Positions 1-11,638 of a stretch of DNA of 35,008 nt are shown here, piece by piece. Source of the stretch: Methanosarcinaceae archaeon (GTDB taxonomy: Archaea; Halobacteriota; Methanosarcinia; Methanosarcinales; Methanosarcinaceae); the NCBI GenBank assembly GCA_028690255.1, contig JAQVBP010000005.1, forward strand, positions 1 through 35,008, written 5' to 3'. Every line of letters starts with the position of its first letter. The stretch's first letter is position 1. Made by a program: the position numbers and the translations under genes. The notes under the pieces are model-generated. The model did no database searches and had not been told where the DNA came from. It was given only the letters and a program-made list of their open reading frames with translations.

Positions 1-159
1 TGAATCTCCATAGAGTAATAGAATCAAAGAATATTTTCAAATCGTTTGAATCAAAAAGACGGGGCAATAGCTGCAATGTCTACGAAAATTCGGCGAAAAA
101 ATTAAAGGGGGGTCGAAATGTAAATTTACTGCTCTTTTTTTCAGAAATTTTAAAATGGT

Positions 160-194
160 AAAATGTTATCGTTTTATTAAAACAATAACATTTT
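160..194. repeat. Imperfect 17-bp-arm palindrome aaaatgttatcgtttta-t-taaaacaataacatttt
   Basis: Read directly. The arms are reverse complements with one mismatch. AT-rich non-coding context. Confidence 0.8.
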
Positions 195-242
195 AGGATT
201 AATTACCCGTTTTTATTAGAAAGAGATAGGGGTTTAAGGTAT

Positions 243-279
243 AAAATGTTATTGTTTTACTATAAAACAATAATATAAT
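243..279. repeat. Second, more degenerate copy of the same palindrome (aaaatgttattgtttta-cta-taaaacaataat...)
   Basis: Core arms ttattgtttta (249-259) and taaaacaataa (263-273). Starts ~83 bp after palindrome 1. Confidence 0.7.
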
Positions 280-283
280 TTAT

Positions 284-349
284 TTATCAGATCTGTTTTT
301 TCTTTATTTTTCTTGTTTTCAAAAATAGATAGCAATTACTAATTATAAC
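284..349 (+). repeat. Dispersed copy of the iteron-like unit ttatcagatctgttttttctttatttttcttgttttcaa-aatagatagcaattactaattataac
   Basis: Near-identical to 503-568 (1 mismatch by eye). Confidence 0.85.
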
Positions 350-480
350 TCACATTTCGAATCTTGGCATTTATGTACAAATCCATGACACAAATATGCC
401 ATTTTATCTGATACACTATCACTAAAATGGCCAATATGCAGGAATTATTATCTCATATTGGCAGTGGGTCGAAATGTCGA

Positions 481-622
481 TTATAACAAAATTAGTAATT
501 CTTTATCAGATCTGTTTTTTCTTTATTTTTCTTGTTTTCAAGAATAGATAGCAATTACTAATTATAACAAAATTAGTAATTCTTTATCAGATCTGTTTTT
601 TCTTTATTTTTCTTGTTTTCAA
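481..622 (+). repeat. Tandem direct repeat, 82-bp unit, about 1.7 copies (481-562, then 563-622 truncated)
   Basis: ttataacaaaattagtaattctttatcagatctgttttttctttatttttcttgttttcaa occurs at both 481 and 563. The second copy breaks off into acctgcattccgcattt. Confidence 0.85.
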
Positions 623-880
623 ACCTGCATTCCGCATTTATATAAATTACTGCATGGTTAACCTCAGATCCATTTTATGACTTTTAGGAACTATTCAGCC
701 TATCAAAATTAGTTGATTGATATTGATTTTGACTAAACTGATGTGCTGATCATTTACTGAAGCAAAATAAAAAACGTGATCAATCCAACAATTAAAGAGA
801 ATCAATTCATAGAAATTTGTCCATTGAATCTTAATAAAGATGGCTATTGATGCAGGTTTGCCTTGGCTGAATATTTATGC

Positions 881-1738: not shown

Positions 1739-3067
1739 TCACCTAAATGAAGTATCTAACTTAACTGTTAAGTCCCACCGATCTTCTATGATATCTGGAG
1801 AATGAGTTGCTATAAGGACGTCAAGGTCTACAAGTTCAAGAACTTTCTGTAGATCACTTAAAAAGTCTTTTTGCCATCCTATGTGCAAAGAAATTTCTGG
1901 CTCATCAATTAAGATTAATGATTTGTGTTTTATTCTAAACAATAATTCATAATACAAAATTAGTTCATGTTGTTCCCCTGAAGATAGATTTGTTGGTAGA
2001 ATTTTTTTATTGTTTGATGTGGTAAAAATAAACCCCGTATTTTTATTTATGGATATACTTTTGTTGGCAAATCTACTGTTAATTATATTAACAAAAAGAT
2101 ATATTTTATCTCTAAGTTCATTGAATACATCCAATTTTTTCTTTACATCTTCAATATAAACAGAAAGAACGTGAGCATTTTCCTCGGTCAATTCTTGAAA
2201 CTCTCTGAAGTTAATTTCTTTCTCTTCATCAAGAAGGCCTGTTTTAATCAAATTAGTTCTTCTTTCTTCAAGGCTTGATAAGTATTCTTTAAGCTTGTTG
2301 ATATTTACATCATCTTTTGTCTTGGCTAATCGAATAGGAAACGTTCTATCTAAGGATTGAGAGAGACTTGCATATTCAGCAAGCTTTTTTTGAATAGCAT
2401 CTGATAATTCCCTTGAATAATCCATAACCGTATTCTCAATGGGTGCACCTTTCGAATATTCAAAATCCCTTTTCAAGCGCTTAAATGTAAACAACCTTTG
2501 AGTTGTTATAAAGTTTATATTGATCGATTTTTTTATATTAATAAACCACTCCTTCATGTTCTTTTCATCAAAATTTAGACCAAATTTCCACATAATTTCA
2601 TCAGATGAATATATTTCATTTTCGGGATCATAAATCCACTTATCATCATCTATTCTTATAAGTCCTGGAACTGTTCTAATTAATGAAAAAATATCCTTTC
2701 TATCATCAATTCTTTTTTTAATTATTACATTTTTATTTTTATTGTTGCTGTGTGATAGTATAAGTGAAATTTCATTTTTTGGAGTGTCATGTTGAAAACA
2801 ATTATTTTCACTTGAACTCTTCTTATTAACAATCTTTTTTAAACAAATAGTATTTCCATCATCAAAACTCACGGAAAATTCATCAAATGGAATGTCATAG
2901 AATATTTTATAATCTAAACAAAAAAGAGATTTTATCATTTCTAAAATAATGGTTTTTCCAACCCCATTTTGACCATGAATAATTGTTATATGATTCTCCA
3001 TGTTTAAATTTATTTCATGATCGTAAAGTTCGAAAAGATTTTTAATATTTACCTTCTTAACTCTCAT
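1739..3067 (-). CDS. ABC/SMC-type ATPase (AAA_15/AAA_21-like, PARIS AriA-like)
   Basis: 442 aa. N-terminal IKNLFELY..., Walker A GQNGVGKT, Q-loop FITTQR, ABC signature LSSGEQ, Walker B LILIDEPEISLH, H-loop IATHSP. Charged coiled-coil-like insert between the two lobes. Confidence 0.8.
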   Translation of the reverse strand: MRVKKVNIKNLFELYDHEINLNMENHITIIHGQNGVGKTIILEMIKSLFCLDYKIFYDIPFDEFSVSFDDGNTICLKKIVNKKSSSENNCFQHDTPKNEISLILSHSNNKNKNVIIKKRIDDRKDIFSLIRTVPGLIRIDDDKWIYDPENEIYSSDEIMWKFGLNFDEKNMKEWFINIKKSININFITTQRLFTFKRLKRDFEYSKGAPIENTVMDYSRELSDAIQKKLAEYASLSQSLDRTFPIRLAKTKDDVNINKLKEYLSSLEERRTNLIKTGLLDEEKEINFREFQELTEENAHVLSVYIEDVKKKLDVFNELRDKIYLFVNIINSRFANKSISINKNTGFIFTTSNNKKILPTNLSSGEQHELILYYELLFRIKHKSLILIDEPEISLHIGWQKDFLSDLQKVLELVDLDVLIATHSPDIIEDRWDLTVKLDTSFR

Positions 3068-3413
3068 AATATTACCTAATCCTATAGATTCTGAATATAT
3101 GATATAAGTCTTTTCTTATGTATAATTAATACCAGTAGTGGAAATTATCAATATGAGTACGAGTTACGCACTTGAGATGTAAAACCAAGCACATTAGAGC
3201 TTGTAGTAAATATTGTGCTTTAGACAGTTTGATGATTCATGCTACTGGTTTTCTGTTCAACTGCGTAAGTCCTATATGAGATAATAAATTATTTTTAATT
3301 ATAATCCTGTATCTCCCTGTCGTCTCCTTCGGAATTAGCAGAGAGGGTTTTAAAAAGTTCATAGTCCTCATCTGTGAGAGGTAATTCTTATTTTTTTCAT
3401 GATTTCACCTATA

Positions 3414-4727
3414 TTAACATTGATAAGATAAATTAGAAGCGGCTCTAAAGATCATATCAATCTTTTCTTTTTCTTTCGGCTTATCCTTCGGTTTTGGCTT
3501 CAAAGCATTCTTAACCTTCAAATAGGCCCCTGCAAAGAAGGCTTTAGAGTCTGATCTGTTAGAATGCCTGTAGCCGGTAACTTTGCTTATTGTGCCTTTC
3601 AGGAAATGTTTTTTAGGGCGGTTCTCGTCGGGCTTTTCTTTTTTCGGTTGAAGAGATTGGGAGCAAGACCAATTATGAAAACCGAAGGCCCAAAACATGT
3701 AACCGGATTCAGAGGTCATGCTTTTTTCTAAGTATTTTCGGAGATAATCATAAGGAGGGGTTCCGGCTGCATCCTCGGGACAACTGCCGGACCAGATCCA
3801 GGAAGAGCCCTGACGCCTGATAGTGTGAATGTCCAGGATCTCACCGCCTCCGTACCCCCTCCAGGCGTATTGTATCACACTTTTGGGCATGAGCCAGTTA
3901 ATCCCGAAAAAGGTTATATGGAAATGGACCCGCCCGTTTTTCTGAAACTCCCGGACGGCGATATATTCGGCGTGGTCCGGGAGATGATAACGTATGTAAT
4001 CAAGGAATTTTTCAAGGGCTTCATTTGTTTTATAATTGCATTCAGCTAAGGAACCGTACCCATAGGGCCGGGCTGTGAGGGTAAGTTCAGAGGCTACGCA
4101 GTGCCTCCGACTGGCTGCACCCCAGGCAAACCGGAAGCCCTGTATATTGGCGTCTTGTCGGTCCCGAGCCGTAAAACGGGTTTTATATGGCATTGTGTAG
4201 TTTTCAGCAAAAACCGGGCTACCTGTGGGAGAATAAGCCATATCAAGGCGTTCTGTTTTGGCCCGCTTGCAATAGTTGTTATATTCGGTTATTACCTCTT
4301 CTTCTACGTTATTGTGCTTGATCCAGTCGGAGCCCTCATAATGACCAAAAGAGTTTATACGGTTGAGCTTTAGAAGGGCTTTAAGCCGTTCAGGGCCTGC
4401 CCGCTTAAGGTGACTTAATGGTTCATGCTGCCGCCCGCTTGCGTGTTCGGTTTTTTCGGAGTTTTGCTTATCACAGATCAAGTCTAGGGAAGAACCCGAA
4501 AAAAAAGAAGATTCTTGCCGGGGATTTGCACGGACCCACAAAATAGAATCTACGTTTTCAAAAAAATATTTAACTTTTACTTTAGAATCACGGAGATAAC
4601 GGCGTACCTTCTGATAGCCATTTCTTCCGATCAAGCCTAACCTATCCGCTATTTGTTGCATAGTTAAGGGAACGGATAAAGTCATATCCCAAATCTTAGC
4701 TTTTTGCTCTGCTGTAAGCCCTGCCAT
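3414..4727 (-). CDS. Rolling-circle replication initiator (HUH superfamily, two-Tyr type) with N-terminal HTH-like region
   Basis: 437 aa. Motif 1 ELTLTARP (aa ~214), motif 2 RVHFHITFF (HUH, aa 268-270), motif 3 YLRKYLEK (YxxKYxxK, aa 328-335). Spacing is typical of RCR Reps. Lys-rich C-terminal tail. Confidence 0.75.
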   Translation of the reverse strand: MAGLTAEQKAKIWDMTLSVPLTMQQIADRLGLIGRNGYQKVRRYLRDSKVKVKYFFENVDSILWVRANPRQESSFFSGSSLDLICDKQNSEKTEHASGRQHEPLSHLKRAGPERLKALLKLNRINSFGHYEGSDWIKHNNVEEEVITEYNNYCKRAKTERLDMAYSPTGSPVFAENYTMPYKTRFTARDRQDANIQGFRFAWGAASRRHCVASELTLTARPYGYGSLAECNYKTNEALEKFLDYIRYHLPDHAEYIAVREFQKNGRVHFHITFFGINWLMPKSVIQYAWRGYGGGEILDIHTIRRQGSSWIWSGSCPEDAAGTPPYDYLRKYLEKSMTSESGYMFWAFGFHNWSCSQSLQPKKEKPDENRPKKHFLKGTISKVTGYRHSNRSDSKAFFAGAYLKVKNALKPKPKDKPKEKEKIDMIFRAASNLSYQC

Positions 4728-4797
4728 AGAATAACCCCGTTAGGACGGTAGTAAACCCCGGTATTGTTCGGTTTTAAAAAAAATAAAAAAAATAGGC

Positions 4798-5235
4798 TTA
4801 TGCCAGGGTTCCCAGAGCTTCCGCTAAGGTGGTTTGTTTAAAATGCTTGCAGAGATCATCCAGAGAAGGACCTCTTAGCTTCCAGTATGACCATTCAAGG
4901 CCACAGTCAGGACAGGTGATAAAGACCCACTGAGGGAACGAAAAACCCCTTAGACGGTATCCGCTATCATGGTCAAAGGTCCCGAGCTCTCCGGCCAGGA
5001 GAGAAGCCCCGCAGGAACAGGTTTTAACGGGGGCTCTCTGGAGACGGTCCAGGATTTGATCTTTGATGTAAATTGCATCAAAAATGTTTTCGATACTGCT
5101 TTTTATTTTGAGGGGAGGACCTCGGGGGGGCTGGTTGTGCTGTACTTTTTTCCAGCATTCCGGACCGTACCCGCGTTGTTTGCTTAAACGGTCCTTTAAG
5201 GCCCGTCCGCATCGAAGGCAGCGATTATAAGCCAT
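4798..5235 (-). CDS. Zinc-binding protein, DUF6011-like N-terminus
   Basis: 145 aa. CLRCGRALKDRLSKQRGYGPEC matches the CxxCGRxL...S...G.GPxC pattern of DUF6011 as I recall it. Second Cys pair set CSCG...CPDC. Start overlaps the upstream stop by 1 nt (TAATG). Confidence 0.55.
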   Translation of the reverse strand: MAYNRCLRCGRALKDRLSKQRGYGPECWKKVQHNQPPRGPPLKIKSSIENIFDAIYIKDQILDRLQRAPVKTCSCGASLLAGELGTFDHDSGYRLRGFSFPQWVFITCPDCGLEWSYWKLRGPSLDDLCKHFKQTTLAEALGTLA

Positions 5236-5696
5236 TAGGCCACCCCCAGGAAATCAGAAGCCACATAGGCCCATACAACCGCCCCCCGTGGAAACTTGAA
5301 AGTAACAGGCTTGATTAATTGGATGTTTTCAAGGTCCCAGAAATAGGTTTTACCATCAACCCAATAGGAAGAGGGGGCATAATGGGACCCGGCCAGCCGG
5401 TTAAATTCAGAAGGGAAGGCGATATTATCACAGCCGCTTAATTCAGCGAATGCAATTATAGCCCCATGAACAAAACAGGAATCCGGAAGGCTAATGTTTT
5501 GACTTTTCAATACTGTTTTTACATGCCGAAGGTGTACCCTGTCCGGGTTTGTCAGGCTGGCATAGATAGCTATTTTTTGCCTTTCAAAACCTTGAGGATA
5601 GGGATAACGCCGGACCTCATACCCTTTCAGGTCCGCAGCTATAAGGCCCGCGAAGGGTTGCCGGACAGCCAGGACGGGTATTTTTTTTTCGGTCAT
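5235..5696 (-). CDS. ASCH (PUA-like) domain protein
   Basis: 153 aa. N-terminus IPVLAVRQPFAGLIAADLKGYEVRRYP resembles the ASCH beta-barrel signature (SIxQPWAxLIxxGxKxxExR). ATGA overlap with the upstream gene. Confidence 0.55.
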   Translation of the reverse strand: MTEKKIPVLAVRQPFAGLIAADLKGYEVRRYPYPQGFERQKIAIYASLTNPDRVHLRHVKTVLKSQNISLPDSCFVHGAIIAFAELSGCDNIAFPSEFNRLAGSHYAPSSYWVDGKTYFWDLENIQLIKPVTFKFPRGAVVWAYVASDFLGVA

Positions 5697-6004
5697 GCGA
5701 GAACCCCCCGGAGGGTTCCCAGGAAGGCCAGGACGAGATAAACGGAAAAGAGGACCGCCTGCCTTTGGGCTGCATGGGCTTCAATGAAAAGCTCTTTTTC
5801 TTTCAGGGACCGGGCCGCGTTGATATTTGCGAAGACTAAAATAAGGTTTCCAGGAAGCCAAACGAGATTAGCCAGGCCAGCCTTTCCGAAGGAGACGCAG
5901 GCCGCGCCAGCGATTCCCGCGAATACTGCCAGGTCCATAAAGCCCAGGCGGGGAAGGTGTAGCCGGACCGCCCGGAAGGAAGGGGATAAAGCCGGGTGAT
6001 TCAC
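5693..6004 (-). CDS. Small hydrophobic (membrane) protein
   Basis: 103 aa, GTG start, 2-3 hydrophobic stretches. GTGA/ATGA overlaps on both sides place it in the coupled operon. Confidence 0.45.
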   Translation of the reverse strand: MNHPALSPSFRAVRLHLPRLGFMDLAVFAGIAGAACVSFGKAGLANLVWLPGNLILVFANINAARSLKEKELFIEAHAAQRQAVLFSVYLVLAFLGTLRGVLA

Positions 6005-6162
6005 AGGAACAGACCCCCGCAGCTATAAATTTTTTCGAAAAATTCATCTACTTCAAAAAAGGGGGTTCTTGGGTGGCGTTTGTTGTAAGCCTTCATTGTT
6101 GCCTTAACCGCGTATTTATCATACTCGGAAAGGGTCGCATAGCTTGACGTTCGGGGGTTCAT
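6001..6162 (-). CDS. Small ORF (53 aa), below the ORF-track cutoff, hypothetical
   Basis: Hand translation: MNPRTSSYATLSEYDKYAVKATMKAYNKRHPRTPFFEVDEFFEKIYSCGGLFL. The ATG overlaps the upstream stop (ATGA at 6159-6162). Its TGA overlaps the GTG of the next gene. Confidence 0.4.
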   Translation of the reverse strand: MNPRTSSYATLSEYDKYAVKATMKAYNKRHPRTPFFEVDEFFEKIYSCGGLFL

Positions 6163-6446
6163 ACCTTCACCCCCTGCCTCTTTGAAGCAATTTTAAAGAA
6201 TTTGGGGTTTGCTCCCCCCCGGATACGAATAACTTTTTTTTCTGCCTGCTGGAACTGAGCCCCGCAGATCTCACAGCGATAACCGGGCTTTCTTGTCCTG
6301 TGACGAATCCGAACGGTTCCGCAGAAAGGGCAGCATTTTAAAGACCGGGTCTTTATCTCCAACATTGGCCTAAAAGAGCCTGAATTATTTAGAACATTTA
6401 TACAGCCCTGAGCAGAGCTAACGCTATTTGAAGTTGTGTTTCTCAT
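6159..6446 (-). CDS. Zinc-ribbon protein, first gene of the coupled operon
   Basis: 95 aa with CCPFCG...(13 aa)...CEICG, a four-Cys ribbon. Basic C-terminus. Confidence 0.45.
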   Translation of the reverse strand: MRNTTSNSVSSAQGCINVLNNSGSFRPMLEIKTRSLKCCPFCGTVRIRHRTRKPGYRCEICGAQFQQAEKKVIRIRGGANPKFFKIASKRQGVKV

Positions 6447-6725
6447 GTCGTTTAGTCCTATTCAATAACTGCCCGAAACCGGCAAAGTTTCAGACGTTAA
6501 AAAAAGGGATACTCTTCAACTATATAAAAGTTAAGAAAAGCAATGTTTATAAACAGAGACGTTTCATTAACATAATGACCTTTGTTAAGGCCGACGGCAA
6601 ACGGTTTGAGGTCGAAATCCGCGAGCGGGAAACTATTTTTAAACGTTTAGTCCGCCCCGTTCAAGATTGACACTTATCTTACAAGGTCAGTACCGTTCTA
6701 AGGGTTCGAACCCATAGAAATTAAC

Positions 6726-6750
6726 TCGGGTTCGAATCCCGGTCCGGGCG
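6726..6750 (+). other. tRNA 3' fragment (T-arm plus 3' acceptor strand), candidate att site / element boundary
   Basis: tcggg-TTCGAAT-cccgg followed by tccgggc-g. The matching 5' acceptor strand (gcccgga) is absent upstream. A second T-arm-like gggttcgaaccc sits at ~6702-6713. Confidence 0.5.
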
Positions 6751-6913
6751 CTTAATTTTTTTGAATTTTTAACTTTGTGAATATTTTTTACTGGTTTTGA
6801 GAAGTAATAAGCTTTAATTGAAGATTTCTTTGATTTGAGATTCCATATTATCTTTTTCAGGTTTATTTCGGGACAATAAGAACTTTATCCGTTAATGAGG
6901 GATATTACCCTTC

Positions 6914-8092
6914 ATGAATCAAACAGAACCCGGGATTAAAAAACCCCTGGAAGAGGCCGGAGCCGAAGCTTACCTGATGCTAGGGGACCTGCATTCGGCA
7001 GACATTTTTTACACAACCCGTTTCCTGGCCTCGGACTCTTTTGCATACCTTCAGACCGCTTCCGGAAAAGAGACGCTACTCATATCGGAAATGGAAAAAG
7101 GAAGGGCCGAAAAAGAGTCGAGATTGTCCGGGATTAAAACCATGAAAGACTTCGGCTACCGGGAAAAAGTAAAAGAAAAGAAAGATGCAGCGCTGGCTTA
7201 CGCGGCCTGCCTTTCGGATCTGCTCCTGGAAACCGGGGTAATAAAGGTTGCCGTACCTTACGATTTTCCAGTTTTTTATGCAAATTGCCTGACCGAAGCC
7301 GGGTTTTCCGTGCTGCCCTTAAAAAGCCCTTTTAAGAAGCTGAGGAGCGTAAAGGGGGCGGAAGAAGTAGAAGCCGTCAAATACGCCCAGAGAGCCGGAG
7401 AAGAGGCCATGAAAGCGGCAATAAAACTAATAGAACGAGCCGAAGAAAAAGACGGCATCCTCTGGCATGAAGGCTCGGAACTGACCGGAGAAAAAGTACT
7501 CTCCGTAATTGACCACACTCTCCTGGACTACGGCTGTGAAGCGGAAGAGACCATCGTCTCCTGCGGAGAGGACAGCTCAAACCCCCACGGGACAACAGCG
7601 GGCCCCCTCAGAGCAGACGCCCCTATCATCCTGGATATTTACCCCAGAAGCAAAAAGAAACGCTACTTTGCGGACATGACACGCACGGTAGTCCACGGAA
7701 AAGCTTCCGGGGAATTGAAAAAAATGTATTCAGCCGTACTGGAGGCCCAGGAAACAGGCCTCAAAATGGTAAAACCGGGAGTCACGGCCTCAGACATCCA
7801 TAATGCGGTCTGTGACCTGTTTGAAGCCCGGGGGTACGACACCTACCGGAGCGGGGCAGAGGTGGGCTTTACCCATTCCACAGGACACGGAGTCGGGCTT
7901 GACATCCACGAACTCCCGGGAGTGGGAGATAACGGGGCCGTACTTGAAGCAGGAAACATCATCACAATCGAGCCCGGACTCTATTACCCCAAAATAGGAG
8001 GAATCCGGCTGGAAGACCTGGTACTCGTAACAAAAAACGGATGCGAGAACCTGACAAAACTGGAGAAGAAATTTGAGTTGGGTGGGGAATAA
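6914..8092 (+). CDS. M24B family Xaa-Pro dipeptidase/aminopeptidase
   Basis: 392 aa. Pita-bread metal-ligand motifs DMTRT, HSTGHGVGLDIHE, EPGLY, IRLED. Confidence 0.9.
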   Translation: MNQTEPGIKKPLEEAGAEAYLMLGDLHSADIFYTTRFLASDSFAYLQTASGKETLLISEMEKGRAEKESRLSGIKTMKDFGYREKVKEKKDAALAYAACLSDLLLETGVIKVAVPYDFPVFYANCLTEAGFSVLPLKSPFKKLRSVKGAEEVEAVKYAQRAGEEAMKAAIKLIERAEEKDGILWHEGSELTGEKVLSVIDHTLLDYGCEAEETIVSCGEDSSNPHGTTAGPLRADAPIILDIYPRSKKKRYFADMTRTVVHGKASGELKKMYSAVLEAQETGLKMVKPGVTASDIHNAVCDLFEARGYDTYRSGAEVGFTHSTGHGVGLDIHELPGVGDNGAVLEAGNIITIEPGLYYPKIGGIRLEDLVLVTKNGCENLTKLEKKFELGGE

Positions 8093-8189
8093 GCTGGCCG
8101 GATTGGCCTTAATTTTTCCCGCATAATACCCAGAAATCAAAATTATTTAACTGATATAGTTATCATGTATTATTCATTCAGGAGTAAGT

Positions 8190-9080
8190 ATGACAGATAA
8201 CGTTCAAAACAGAGAAGAAATCGCTGAAAAATACAGAGAAGCAGGCAGAATCCTGACCCAGGTCCGGGCCGAGGCAAAAGACCTGGTCCGGGTCGGGGGC
8301 AGCCTTCTTAAAGTTGCGGACTTCGTGGAAACCCGGACCGTCGAACTCGGAGGGAAACCGGCTTTTCCCTGTAACATCTCAAGGAACGAGGAAGCGGCCC
8401 ACGCAACCCCGAAAACGGGAGACACGGACACCTTCGGAAAAGACATGATAAAGCTGGACCTCGGGGTCCATGTGGACGGCTACATCGCAGACTCGGCCCT
8501 GACTGTGGACCTCTCGGGAAACCCTGACATCGTAAAAGCCGCCGAAGAAGCACTCGCTGCGGCAATTGCCCTGGTAAGGCCCGGAGTCAGCACCGGAGAA
8601 CTGGGGGCCGCAATCGAAGAGACCATTCGGGGCTACGGGCTGCTCCCAATCGCAAACCTTACCGGGCACGGACTCGCCCGGTACATTGCCCATGACAACC
8701 CTGCTGTCCCGAACAGACATGTGGACGGAGGAGCGGTCCTGAAAGAAGGAGATGTAATTGCAATCGAGCCATTCGCAACAAACGGCATGGGCCTGGTCCA
8801 CGACGGAAGCTGGACCGAGATCTACAGTATTATCCGGAAAAAACCCGTCCGTGTACCTGCAATCCGGAAGGTCCTCAAACAGGCCGAGGAATACAAAGAG
8901 CTTCCCTTTGCAAAACGCTGGCTTTCCTCCGATAAACTGGACTTTGCAATGATTCAGCTTGAAAAAGCCGGAATCCTCCACGGCTATCCCGTCCTCCTGG
9001 AAAGCGCAGGCGGCCTGGTAGCACAGGCTGAGCACACGGTTATCGTAAACGAAGACGGGTGTGAGATTACTACGGAATAA
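8190..9080 (+). CDS. map: Type 2 (archaeal) methionine aminopeptidase
   Basis: 296 aa. FPCNIS..EAAHATP, DLGVHVDGYIADSA, TGHG, AIEPF, AQAEHTV. Confidence 0.92.
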   Translation: MTDNVQNREEIAEKYREAGRILTQVRAEAKDLVRVGGSLLKVADFVETRTVELGGKPAFPCNISRNEEAAHATPKTGDTDTFGKDMIKLDLGVHVDGYIADSALTVDLSGNPDIVKAAEEALAAAIALVRPGVSTGELGAAIEETIRGYGLLPIANLTGHGLARYIAHDNPAVPNRHVDGGAVLKEGDVIAIEPFATNGMGLVHDGSWTEIYSIIRKKPVRVPAIRKVLKQAEEYKELPFAKRWLSSDKLDFAMIQLEKAGILHGYPVLLESAGGLVAQAEHTVIVNEDGCEITTE

Positions 9081-10006: not shown

Positions 10007-10102
10007 GAACGCCTGCCTCCGACCCGGTTATAGGTCCCGAAAGCTGTACTTAAACCCAAAAACCTTTAATTAAACCCAAAAGTTTAATCTTAGTCCCGAC
10101 CC

Positions 10103-10402
10103 ATGCTAAAAGACATGCTTGTAAAACAGATAATCCTGGAAAAAGGGTGTGCCCTTGGCCTCTGCTTTCAAATGCAGGCCTATCCCCTGCTTGTCCTTCG
10201 GGCGGAGAAAGGTTTTTTAATGTGCGGCTACCTGGACACCCGGGCCGCAGAAAGGCTCGTCGACGCCGCAGCAAAGGTAACAGGTGTTAAGACCTTCGAA
10301 GACATGCTAAAAGCAAAAATTGTTGAGGCCACGCCCGCAGCCAGAGCTCTCGGCGTTGAACCCGGTATGACAGGGGAAGAAGCGCTCAACAAAATGTTTT
10401 AA
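10103..10402 (+). CDS. DUF1805 (YunC-like) domain protein
   Basis: 99 aa. LVLRAEKGFLMCGYLD...AAAKVTGVKTFEDMLKAKI matches the DUF1805 pattern as I recall it. Confidence 0.7.
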   Translation: MLKDMLVKQIILEKGCALGLCFQMQAYPLLVLRAEKGFLMCGYLDTRAAERLVDAAAKVTGVKTFEDMLKAKIVEATPAARALGVEPGMTGEEALNKMF

Positions 10403-10594
10403 TCAAATTGCCCCTACCTCCCGACCTCGAAAGCAGACCTTCACCGGAAAGGGGACCCCCTGACAGACAGTGGACCCCTGACGGGCAGAAGACTCTCCCC
10501 GGAAAGCGGGTCGCTCTGGCAGACCACACTCCCACAAATAATCCAAAATGATCCAGATTTACCCAAAAAAAGGACCAGTAATACGGGTTTACCA

Positions 10595-11638
10595 ATGTTA
10601 TACGCTTTTGAACTTTCAGGAGAACACGAACAACTACCCGCCGCCGAGGCCCTTGCCTGCCTTGAGACGGTGGGGCTTGAGTTTGTGACTCACGCCTTTT
10701 TTGAGCAGTGCCTCGTGGTGGATATCCGGGGTAGAAAAGAAACCGTTGAAGAAATACTAAGAGGTCGGGTAACGGAACGGCTCGCAATGACCCATCACAT
10801 CCTGAAAGTGGTGGGAATCACCGAAAGCCGGCCTGAAGAAATTCTCAGGTTTGCCGAAAATTTCGATCCTGAAGACTTTATCAGGGAAGGCGAAAGTTTT
10901 GTTGTCCGGGCAAAACGAATCGGGAAACACGTGGACTACCCCTGTGAGCCCCTTGAAAAAAAGATAGGAGGCTACATCTACAGGAAAGGTTTCAGGGCAA
11001 AGCTCAAAGCCCCGGACGTTAGTTTCCGCCTTATCCTGAGTGAGCGGACCGTTTTCGGAGTCCTGCTCTCGTCAGTTGACAGAAGCGACTATGAAGCCCG
11101 AACCCCGCAGAACAAACCCTTTTTCCACCCAGGAGTCCTCATGCCAAGGGTTGCCCGGGCCCTTGTAAACATCGCCCGGACAAAGGCCGGAGACCTTTTC
11201 CTCGACCCCTTCTGCGGGACAGGGGGCATCCTTGTGGAAGCCGGCCTCCTGAAAGCGAGGGTTCTGGGAATCGACGCCCAGGAAAAACTTGTGCTGGGAG
11301 CCCGCATAAACCTTAAGGCTTTCGGGGCGGACTACGTCCTTCTGGAAGGAGATGCCTGCAGAGTCCCCTTAAAAGCGGAAACCGTGGACGCGGTTGTAAC
11401 CGACCCCCCTTACGGACGCTCGGCGGCCATCCTAGCCGAGTCCCTGGAAAAACTCTATGCAGGGGCCTTTATGGAAATTTACCGCGTCCTGAAACCCGGG
11501 GGCCTTGCAGTCGTGGTCTCGGACAAACCGGCTTACGAATACGGAGAAAAAGCAGGGTTGGAAGTGCTTGATATCTATGCCCAGCGAGTCCACCGGAGCC
11601 TTACCAGGACGATAACGGTATTCCGAAAACTAAGGTAA
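10595..11638 (+). CDS. THUMP-domain tRNA (guanine-N2) methyltransferase (Trm-G10/Trm11-like)
   Basis: 347 aa. SAM motif I DPFCGTGGILVEAG, motif IV DPPYGRS. N-terminal ~160 aa has THUMP-like size and position. Confidence 0.85.
   Translation: MLYAFELSGEHEQLPAAEALACLETVGLEFVTHAFFEQCLVVDIRGRKETVEEILRGRVTERLAMTHHILKVVGITESRPEEILRFAENFDPEDFIREGESFVVRAKRIGKHVDYPCEPLEKKIGGYIYRKGFRAKLKAPDVSFRLILSERTVFGVLLSSVDRSDYEARTPQNKPFFHPGVLMPRVARALVNIARTKAGDLFLDPFCGTGGILVEAGLLKARVLGIDAQEKLVLGARINLKAFGADYVLLEGDACRVPLKAETVDAVVTDPPYGRSAAILAESLEKLYAGAFMEIYRVLKPGGLAVVVSDKPAYEYGEKAGLEVLDIYAQRVHRSLTRTITVFRKLR

Follow-up and report, generated by a model that had tools for sequence, protein, structure and literature searches.

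A rolling-circle initiator of the pTP2/HRPV-1 type in a probable tRNA-Asp-integrated mobile element of a Methanosarcinaceae genome

The origin of plasmid pTP2 drives plasmid replication in T. kodakarensis (PMC5988781), and homologues of its initiator (RepTP2) with 30–35% identity were previously noted in methanogen chromosomes, where they were guessed to be integrated and where no synteny was found around them (Catchpole et al., PMC5988781). HUH initiators of this type have been grouped in a 'pTP2-like' cluster (Kazlauskas et al. 2019, PMC6668415). Integrated pleolipovirus-like proviruses with a rolling-circle replication (RCR) endonuclease, an integrase, and a tRNA attachment (att) site are also on record (PMC10599561 S9 Fig; PMC10919331), although among methanogens they were reported from Methanonatronarchaeales and Methanomassiliicoccales only (PMC10919331). 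Here, we analyzed a stretch of 35,008 nucleotides from a Methanosarcinaceae archaeon (positions 1 to 35,008 of contig JAQVBP010000005.1, assembly GCA_028690255.1; hereafter the window), in which one open reading frame (ORF), rep, had been predicted from the sequence alone to encode a complete HUH initiator (Rep) on a chromosomally integrated archaeal element with no visible integrase. This original prediction offered two explanations, namely an integrase beyond the left window edge or mobilization of the element by the HUH protein itself. We consider it quite likely that Rep is the initiator of a mobile element with an estimated size of ~15 kb or larger, located at the tRNA-Asp(GTC)/pepQ site of this Methanosarcinaceae genome, and that the integrase of this element lies off the contig.

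Rep as a member of a known HUH initiator family

3414..4727, minus strand: rep, 437 aa, ATG start, HUH rolling-circle initiator
Rep domains: N-terminal winged helix (residues ~4–79), middle domain, HUH nuclease (~197–340), basic C-terminal tail

Rep was compared with Pfam at E ≤ 1, and its residues 215–336 matched PF23343 (REP_ORF2-G2P) with 42.1 bits and an E-value of 1.1e−10 (gathering cut-off 27.8 bits). The sole further match was a sub-threshold one to RepSA, while Rep_1, Rep_2, Rep_trans, Y2_Tnp, and Phage_GPA gave none even at this permissive threshold. No Pfam match was obtained for PF02486 or DUF7845 (Rep_trans and Rep-Arvir), the fold being of the HUH type instead. Rep-Arvir was considered as the family of Rep and rejected, as it is a different, non-HUH family (PMC13107129). 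PHROG 3419 ('rolling circle DNA replication initiation') was matched with an E-value of 5e−5. Judged from its sequence and its modeled structure, the ORF at 3414–4727 encodes a genuine HUH rolling-circle initiator, for which origin nicking and joining are predicted. The claim of a complete initiator of 437 aa is thus borne out by the PF23343 match, the conserved motifs, and the modeled HUH fold: the profile searches that had been suggested as a check returned an HUH family above its cut-off, and the motifs proved to be conserved among the homologues.

The three RCR motifs, which had been described as lying in order with typical spacing, were found at the expected places, i.e., motif 1 (ELTLT) at residues 214–218, in strand 211–219 of the AlphaFold2 model, motif 2 (HFHI) at residues 268–271, and motif 3 (YLRKYLEK) at residues 328–335, in model helix 325–335, with a spacing of ~50 and ~60 aa. 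In an alignment of 25 sequences, the invariant residues include T216, L217, T218, H268, H270, Y332, L333, and K335. When conservation was counted over 173 aligned family domains, or over 179 for the two histidines, T218 reached 100% and T216 91% in motif 1, both H268 and H270 reached ~100% in motif 2, and Y332, K335, and the first tyrosine (Y328) of motif 3 reached 96%, ~99%, and 82%, respectively. The two-tyrosine form YxxKYxxK stressed by the original prediction is therefore present, and it is common to HRPV-1 ORF1, yet many of the relatives from Methanosarcina have H, F, L, or M in place of Y328. As the first tyrosine is substituted in ~18% of the relatives, it appears to be dispensable across the family; YxxKYxxK is the majority state, and near-universal is the second tyrosine only.

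The AlphaFold2 model of Rep, built from an alignment, had a mean predicted local distance difference test score (pLDDT) of 81. Structural alignment of the model identified residues 4–79 as a winged helix-turn-helix of the ArsR/SmtB type (Z 8.8) and placed residues 197–340 on the SIRV1 ORF119 Rep (2x3g; Z 7.6, root-mean-square deviation 3.0, 114 of 116 residues covered); the HUH domain of a Helitron transposase (7lcc) aligned with Z 7.0. The top Foldseek matches in the PDB were HUH proteins as well, but weak (E ~7e−3), with none at E ≤ 1e−3, and in a sequence search of solved structures the only match, to a geminivirus Rep at motif 2, stayed below the threshold. In BFVD, which covers predicted structures of viral proteins, the best structural match by far was HRPV-1 protein 1 (E 4e−15, 391 columns), followed by microvirus initiators.

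Among characterized proteins, RepTP2 of pTP2 and ORF1 of HRPV-1 are the nearest relatives of Rep. In tblastn searches with Rep, pTP2 (Thermococcus prieurii, NC_021208) was the sole match among 72,556 plasmids (E 1e−23), with 31% identity to RepTP2 over residues 182–379, a region that corresponds to the HUH core with all three motifs, and the only matches among 50,697 phage and archaeal-virus records were ORF1 of HRPV-1, HRPV-2, and HRPV-6 (E 5e−6, 26% identity). An hhalign comparison of Rep with HRPV-1 ORF1 gave a probability of 99.7% (E 6e−26, 27% identity), with the three motifs in register. Rep is best placed in the 'pTP2-like' cluster of HUH initiators, which is common to alphapleolipoviruses and archaeal plasmids (PMC6668415, PMC10599561).

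The Rep family is already known and annotated, and the window copy, which is single-copy in its assembly, adds a further member. A word-indexed search recovered 36 close homologues, nearly all of them in Methanosarcina chromosomes or metagenome-assembled genomes (MAGs), and an exhaustive HMMER search recovered 313 at E ≤ 1e−3; the best match (90% identity) is located on a 5.4-kb NCBI contig. Distant relatives (~30% identity) are also encoded on two metagenome contigs, L075 (6956 bp) and L089 (3300 bp), which have terminal direct repeats of 127 and 123 nt, respectively, and probably represent entire small circles that replicate with a Rep of this family.

The tRNA-Asp site and the position of the integrase

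6724..6751, plus strand: attR, 27–28-nt copy of the tRNA-Asp(GTC) 3′ end (T-arm and acceptor strand), right insertion boundary

Positions 6724–6750 of the window are identical to positions 1–27 of another contig of the same assembly (C157), at the edge of which a whole tRNA-Asp(GTC) was predicted with ARAGORN, the 3′ end of the tRNA being the contig end. ARAGORN found no whole tRNA in the window, there is no tRNA 5′ half at 6724–6751, and Rfam gave no partial tRNA model at this site, which was recognized as att because of its identity to the 3′ end of the intact tRNA-Asp. The host is placed in the Methanosarcinaceae, its MetAP having no more than 81% identity to named Methanosarcina proteins. 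A genome from a different genus of this family (G007) has both sides of the locus, that of pepQ/metAP and that of C157, on one contig (C59), with only tRNA-Asp and one 224-aa ORF between the two flanks. As the flanks are contiguous there, everything left of position 6724 represents an insertion into the tRNA-Asp/pepQ interval, and the duplicated tRNA 3′ end reads as the footprint of integrase-mediated site-specific recombination. The chromosomal integration that had been proposed is in this way supported by both the att duplication and the contiguous flanks of G007, and the search for a matching att/tRNA copy led to the intact tRNA-Asp on C157. Directly inside the att copy, at 6696–6719, there is an imperfect 24-nt palindrome with a T-arm-like core, perhaps an arm site for the integrase or what is left of an earlier integration.

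The lack of a recombinase within the visible 6.7 kb was confirmed, as none of the eight ORFs tested between 1 and 6.7 kb had a match to recombinases of the tyrosine or serine type. The left edge of the window is the end of its contig (C146), whose base 1 is the first window position; of the inspection that had been suggested for the region upstream of the window, the tRNA partner on C157 could be found, whereas no further upstream sequence exists in the contig.

The complete chromosome of Methanosarcina sp. T3 contains three rep loci and two elements of ~17 and ~27 kb (A and B) that are colinear with the locus described here. Their order is small ORFs, a phrog_3193 protein, DUF6011, Rep, variable cargo, p102, and p123, continuing with a 678-aa secreted protein, membrane proteins, a P-loop ATPase, p86, and a tyrosine integrase of 414–424 aa, which is encoded on the opposite strand 12–23 kb downstream of rep. 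Nucleotide similarity between the two copies stops ~10 nt past rep. Partial elements were found on metagenome contigs: L043/L044 carry Rep, cargo, p102, p123, and the spike gene, while on L041 the part from the spike through ATPase-p86 is joined directly to the part from the Lar-like ORF through Rep, without an integrase, and this permuted order, taken together with that of L043/L044, implies a circular map. An IMG/VR contig (L015) has Rep, ATPase, and p102 together. A different arrangement, unlike that of T3, was observed on L045, where an integrase (7223–8359) with 52% identity to the T3 element integrase is located ~1.7 kb upstream of rep (10082–11152) on the same strand.

The remainder of the element is probably represented by contig C167 (6475 bp) of the same assembly, which corresponds exactly to the p123-to-p86 block and ends where the integrase would start. 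It encodes a secreted spike-like protein (707 aa), membrane proteins, an AAA-type ATPase with 77% identity to the T3 ATPase, and p86, all of them intact ORFs except for two that are cut by the contig ends. The most economical layout would thus run from the tRNA-Asp of C157 through an unassembled integrase, C167, a short gap, and positions 1–6723 of C146 (in order, AT-rich repeats, AriB, AriA, rep, and the five genes upstream of it) to attR and pepQ. Because of the contig break, the tRNA partner on C157, the remainder on C167, and the integrase of the colinear relatives, the integrase is expected off the contig; judged from the relatives only, it most likely lies in an assembly gap beyond the left edge, which favors the first of the two explanations in the original prediction.

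With such a layout, a tyrosine integrase would recombine the two 27–28-nt att copies and excise the element, and the resulting circle would undergo rolling-circle replication. In Rep, the N-terminal winged helix would bind the origin, H268 and H270 would hold a divalent metal, and Y332, possibly alternating with Y328, would nick one strand and stay 5′-linked, with the host replisome extending the 3′-OH. As to the origin, neither the region upstream of the replication module nor that after rep yielded a conserved non-coding motif or hairpin as a candidate.

Several observations weigh against this reconstruction. No PF00589 match is present anywhere in the 95%-complete, 251-contig MAG, and no contig-end overlaps link C146, C167, C157, or other contigs, and C167 could come from another, second element. 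No att repeats (direct repeats of at least 12 nt) were found for the T3 elements, nor was there a tRNA near them, and a genome of the same genus (G001) is rearranged and lacks the tRNA-Asp/pepQ neighborhood. In addition, the frameshift in the small gene that follows rep may be a sign of some decay.

Searching the assembly with the T3 integrases as tblastn queries returned nothing. The PF00589 search was positive in 14 of 14 control genomes, and the assembly has not even a XerA-type gene; the contigs that hold tyrosine recombinase genes were probably lost in binning.

The replication module and the cargo slot

6159..6446, minus strand: 95-aa Lar-like zinc-ribbon protein, first gene of the module (PF14354, E 5.5e−5, below cut-off)
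6001..6162, minus strand: 53-aa conserved small protein, 51–53% identity to the same-position ORF in L005/L006
5693..6004, minus strand: 103-aa hydrophobic protein, overlapping stop/start codons, weak homologue in L047
5235..5696, minus strand: 153-aa protein (phrog_3193, E 6.5e−11), conserved in the module, 35% identity to T3 p163
4798..5235, minus strand: 145-aa DUF6011 and zinc-ribbon protein (PF19474, E 2e−11), always just upstream of rep in relatives
3290..3403, minus strand: frameshifted remnant of a small gene directly after rep, stop after ~10 codons
881..3067, minus strand: PARIS-like cargo, AriA at 1739–3067 (PADLOC, E 5e−25) and AriB at 881–1732 (PADLOC, E 6e−19)
110..650, no strand: AT-rich non-coding block adjoining the contig end, three copies of an 87-nt direct repeat and two related palindromes

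The replication module (3392–6723, 3.3 kb) abuts the copy of the tRNA-Asp 3′ end and consists of six genes on the same strand, five upstream genes with overlapping junctions being followed by a 70-nt gap and then by rep. Its G+C content is 46–51%, compared with 27–32% left of it. The DUF6011 protein has 51% identity to its positional counterpart in the T3 elements, and homologues of the Lar-like protein occur at the same position in L003, L038–L041, L043, and L047. The start context and the N-terminus of the gene remnant after rep match an intact ORF in a metagenome locus (L035); its product is putatively ribbon-helix-helix-like, a label given by eye from the peptide, and arrival of the PARIS cassette may have damaged the gene. 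The AT-rich block probably helped to cause the assembly break (the contig breaks can plausibly be ascribed to its repeats and to the att duplication), and it may also act as a cis element.

Comparison of the loci points to a variable cargo slot immediately after rep. In the window it is occupied by the PARIS pair, which has a low G+C content of 27–32% and illustrates the carriage of defense systems by such elements among methanogens, while relatives have C5 methylases (T3), resolvases or a small tyrosine recombinase (metagenome relatives), or other genes in the same place. A serine recombinase of the resolvase/invertase type is encoded a few kb downstream of rep in L038, L039, L040, L047, L003, and L035, with up to 60% identity to that of T3 element B. 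This neighborhood echoes the pairing of a Rep with a recombinase that the original prediction had mentioned as reported for plasmid pC2A. In the search of 72,556 plasmids with Rep, pC2A itself was not among the matches.

Remnants of the rep 3′ end were observed in T3 at L006:11973–12029, L006:20647–20864, L005:12753–12928, and L002:12331–12445. They are located downstream of intact or degraded reps and flank cargo, some of them being nearer to the window Rep than to the resident copy, and they suggest that recombination has recurred, or that insertions have followed one another, at the 3′ end of rep.

Nature of the element, alternative readings and known systems

It is conceivable, at somewhat less than an even chance, that the window element with C167, the two T3 copies, L041, and L043 represent an undescribed pleolipovirus-like temperate virus lineage of Methanosarcinales, in which an HRPV-1/pTP2-type Rep would be combined with an envelope module of its own and with a hot spot for defense and anti-defense genes after rep (PARIS, C5 methylases, recombinases), the T3 rep remnants marking recombination at or near the origin. 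The label 'pleolipovirus-like provirus' is drawn from Rep homology and gene order and is reasonable but unproven, an integrative plasmid being the alternative. A signal peptide and a C-terminal helix are present in the 707-aa protein of C167, and the 365-aa P-loop protein of the same contig lies where a VP8-like NTPase would be expected. However, the viral interpretation is weakened by the lack of detectable similarity between the spike-like protein and VP4 (hhalign probability against HRPV-1 VP4 of 0.1%) or between the ATPase and VP8 (3%, with only the Walker A region aligned), as well as by the poor AlphaFold2 model of the spike-like protein (pLDDT 58), for which BFVD gave matches to a generic beta-sandwich only. 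Neither of these two proteins had matches in the collection of 50,697 phage and archaeal-virus records.

Three other explanations were considered for the locus as a whole. If the integrase had truly been lost, the locus would be a decaying remnant fixed in the chromosome, with rep as a relic or co-opted. Such a history would be compatible with the absence of an integrase from the assembly, the frameshifted small gene after rep, the foreign low-GC PARIS cargo inserted beside rep, and the degraded rep copies known from elsewhere (e.g., L002, L007, and L009), but we regard it as unlikely: rep and the five upstream genes are intact, with overlapping upstream junctions, the listed C167 genes are likewise intact apart from the two at the contig ends, att copy and tRNA still agree over 27 nt, and the ends of C157 and C167 stop exactly at the expected integrase borders, which argues for an assembly gap rather than a deletion.

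It is still less probable, to a degree that we would call highly doubtful, that the rep module (3392–6723) is an integrated small rolling-circle plasmid in its own right, of the pTP2/pC2A type, placed in tandem with unrelated islands and independent of C167. Against such a separation, the rep and spike/ATPase modules are contiguous in the T3 elements and in L043/L044 and permuted in L041, the IMG/VR contig L015 joins Rep, ATPase, and p102, and the module has no recombinase of its own; the features that it would account for are the G+C difference between the module (46–51%) and the region left of it (27–32%), the distant relatives that occur as small circles of 3.3 and 7.0 kb, and the end of nucleotide similarity between the T3 copies ~10 nt past rep.

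The second explanation of the original prediction, IS91/Helitron-like rolling-circle transposition by the HUH protein itself and without an integrase, is very improbable, since the missing recombinase in window and assembly, the alignment of the HUH domain to the Helitron transposase (Z 7.0), and the three rep loci of T3 with rep 3′-end remnants flanking cargo, readable as products of mis-termination, are outweighed by a boundary at which 27–28 nt of a tRNA 3′ end are exactly duplicated and opposite which the intact tRNA is found, by the lack of Y2_Tnp or any other transposase family in Pfam at E ≤ 1, by the tyrosine integrase of the intact relatives, by the nearest characterized relatives, which are plasmid and virus replication initiators (pTP2 and alphapleolipoviruses), and by the generic nature of the Helitron match, which ties with the Reps of SIRV1, parvovirus, and circovirus. 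A duplicated tRNA 3′ end of this kind is not known from rolling-circle transposons.

Under the preferred reading of an integrase-mediated insertion, the apparent recombinase-less integrated rolling-circle element would be an artefact of assembly fragmentation and not a new transposition mechanism. The comparison also supplies a genomic context for the methanogen RepTP2 homologues, unexplained since 2018, which sit in colinear ~15–27-kb elements with a pleolipovirus-like layout, an integrase being present wherever their far end can be seen. Two intact copies are available in culture, in Methanosarcina sp. T3.

With regard to known systems, the IS91, ISCR, and Helitron proteins share the HUH fold and the tyrosine motif with Rep, but Rep has neither a sequence-family match to them nor a helicase domain, and its N-terminus is a winged helix where those proteins have a zinc-binding domain. 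Initiators of the phiX174 gpA, microvirus, and P2 gpA type resemble Rep in having two tyrosines separated by three residues, each then followed by a lysine, and some Rep relatives have a precomputed PF05840 (Phage_GPA) match; Rep itself differs in having no direct Pfam match to these families, and its first tyrosine is replaced in ~18% of the relatives. The likeness to pTP2, a rolling-circle plasmid, extends across the HUH core including the three motifs. In contrast to this free 2038-bp plasmid of a hyperthermophile, which has no accessory module, the window Rep is longer, starts with a winged helix, and is found within a large tRNA-integrated element.

HRPV-1 and other alphapleolipoviruses have the motif Y-L-x-K-Y-L-x-K of ORF1 in common with Rep, and the HRPV-1 gene order (Rep, ORF2, VP3, VP4, ORF5–7, VP8) is resembled by that of T3 elements A and B, L043, L041, and C167, in which Rep, small proteins, a secreted spike-like protein with a C-terminal anchor, membrane proteins, and an ATPase are encoded. 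The host of HRPV-1 is haloarchaeal, whereas a methanogen is concerned here and the element is known from its genes alone, and PARIS cargo is not known from pleolipoviruses. Genes annotated as 'rolling circle replication-associated protein' in the chromosomes of Methanosarcina (M. acetivorans C2A, M. horonobensis, M. siciliae, and strain T3) belong to the same family with 38–64% full-length identity, are preceded by the same DUF6011 gene, and are already named rolling-circle Reps in NCBI and UniRef; the window locus differs from them in its host genus and in its cargo, which is PARIS instead of C5 methylases or resolvases.

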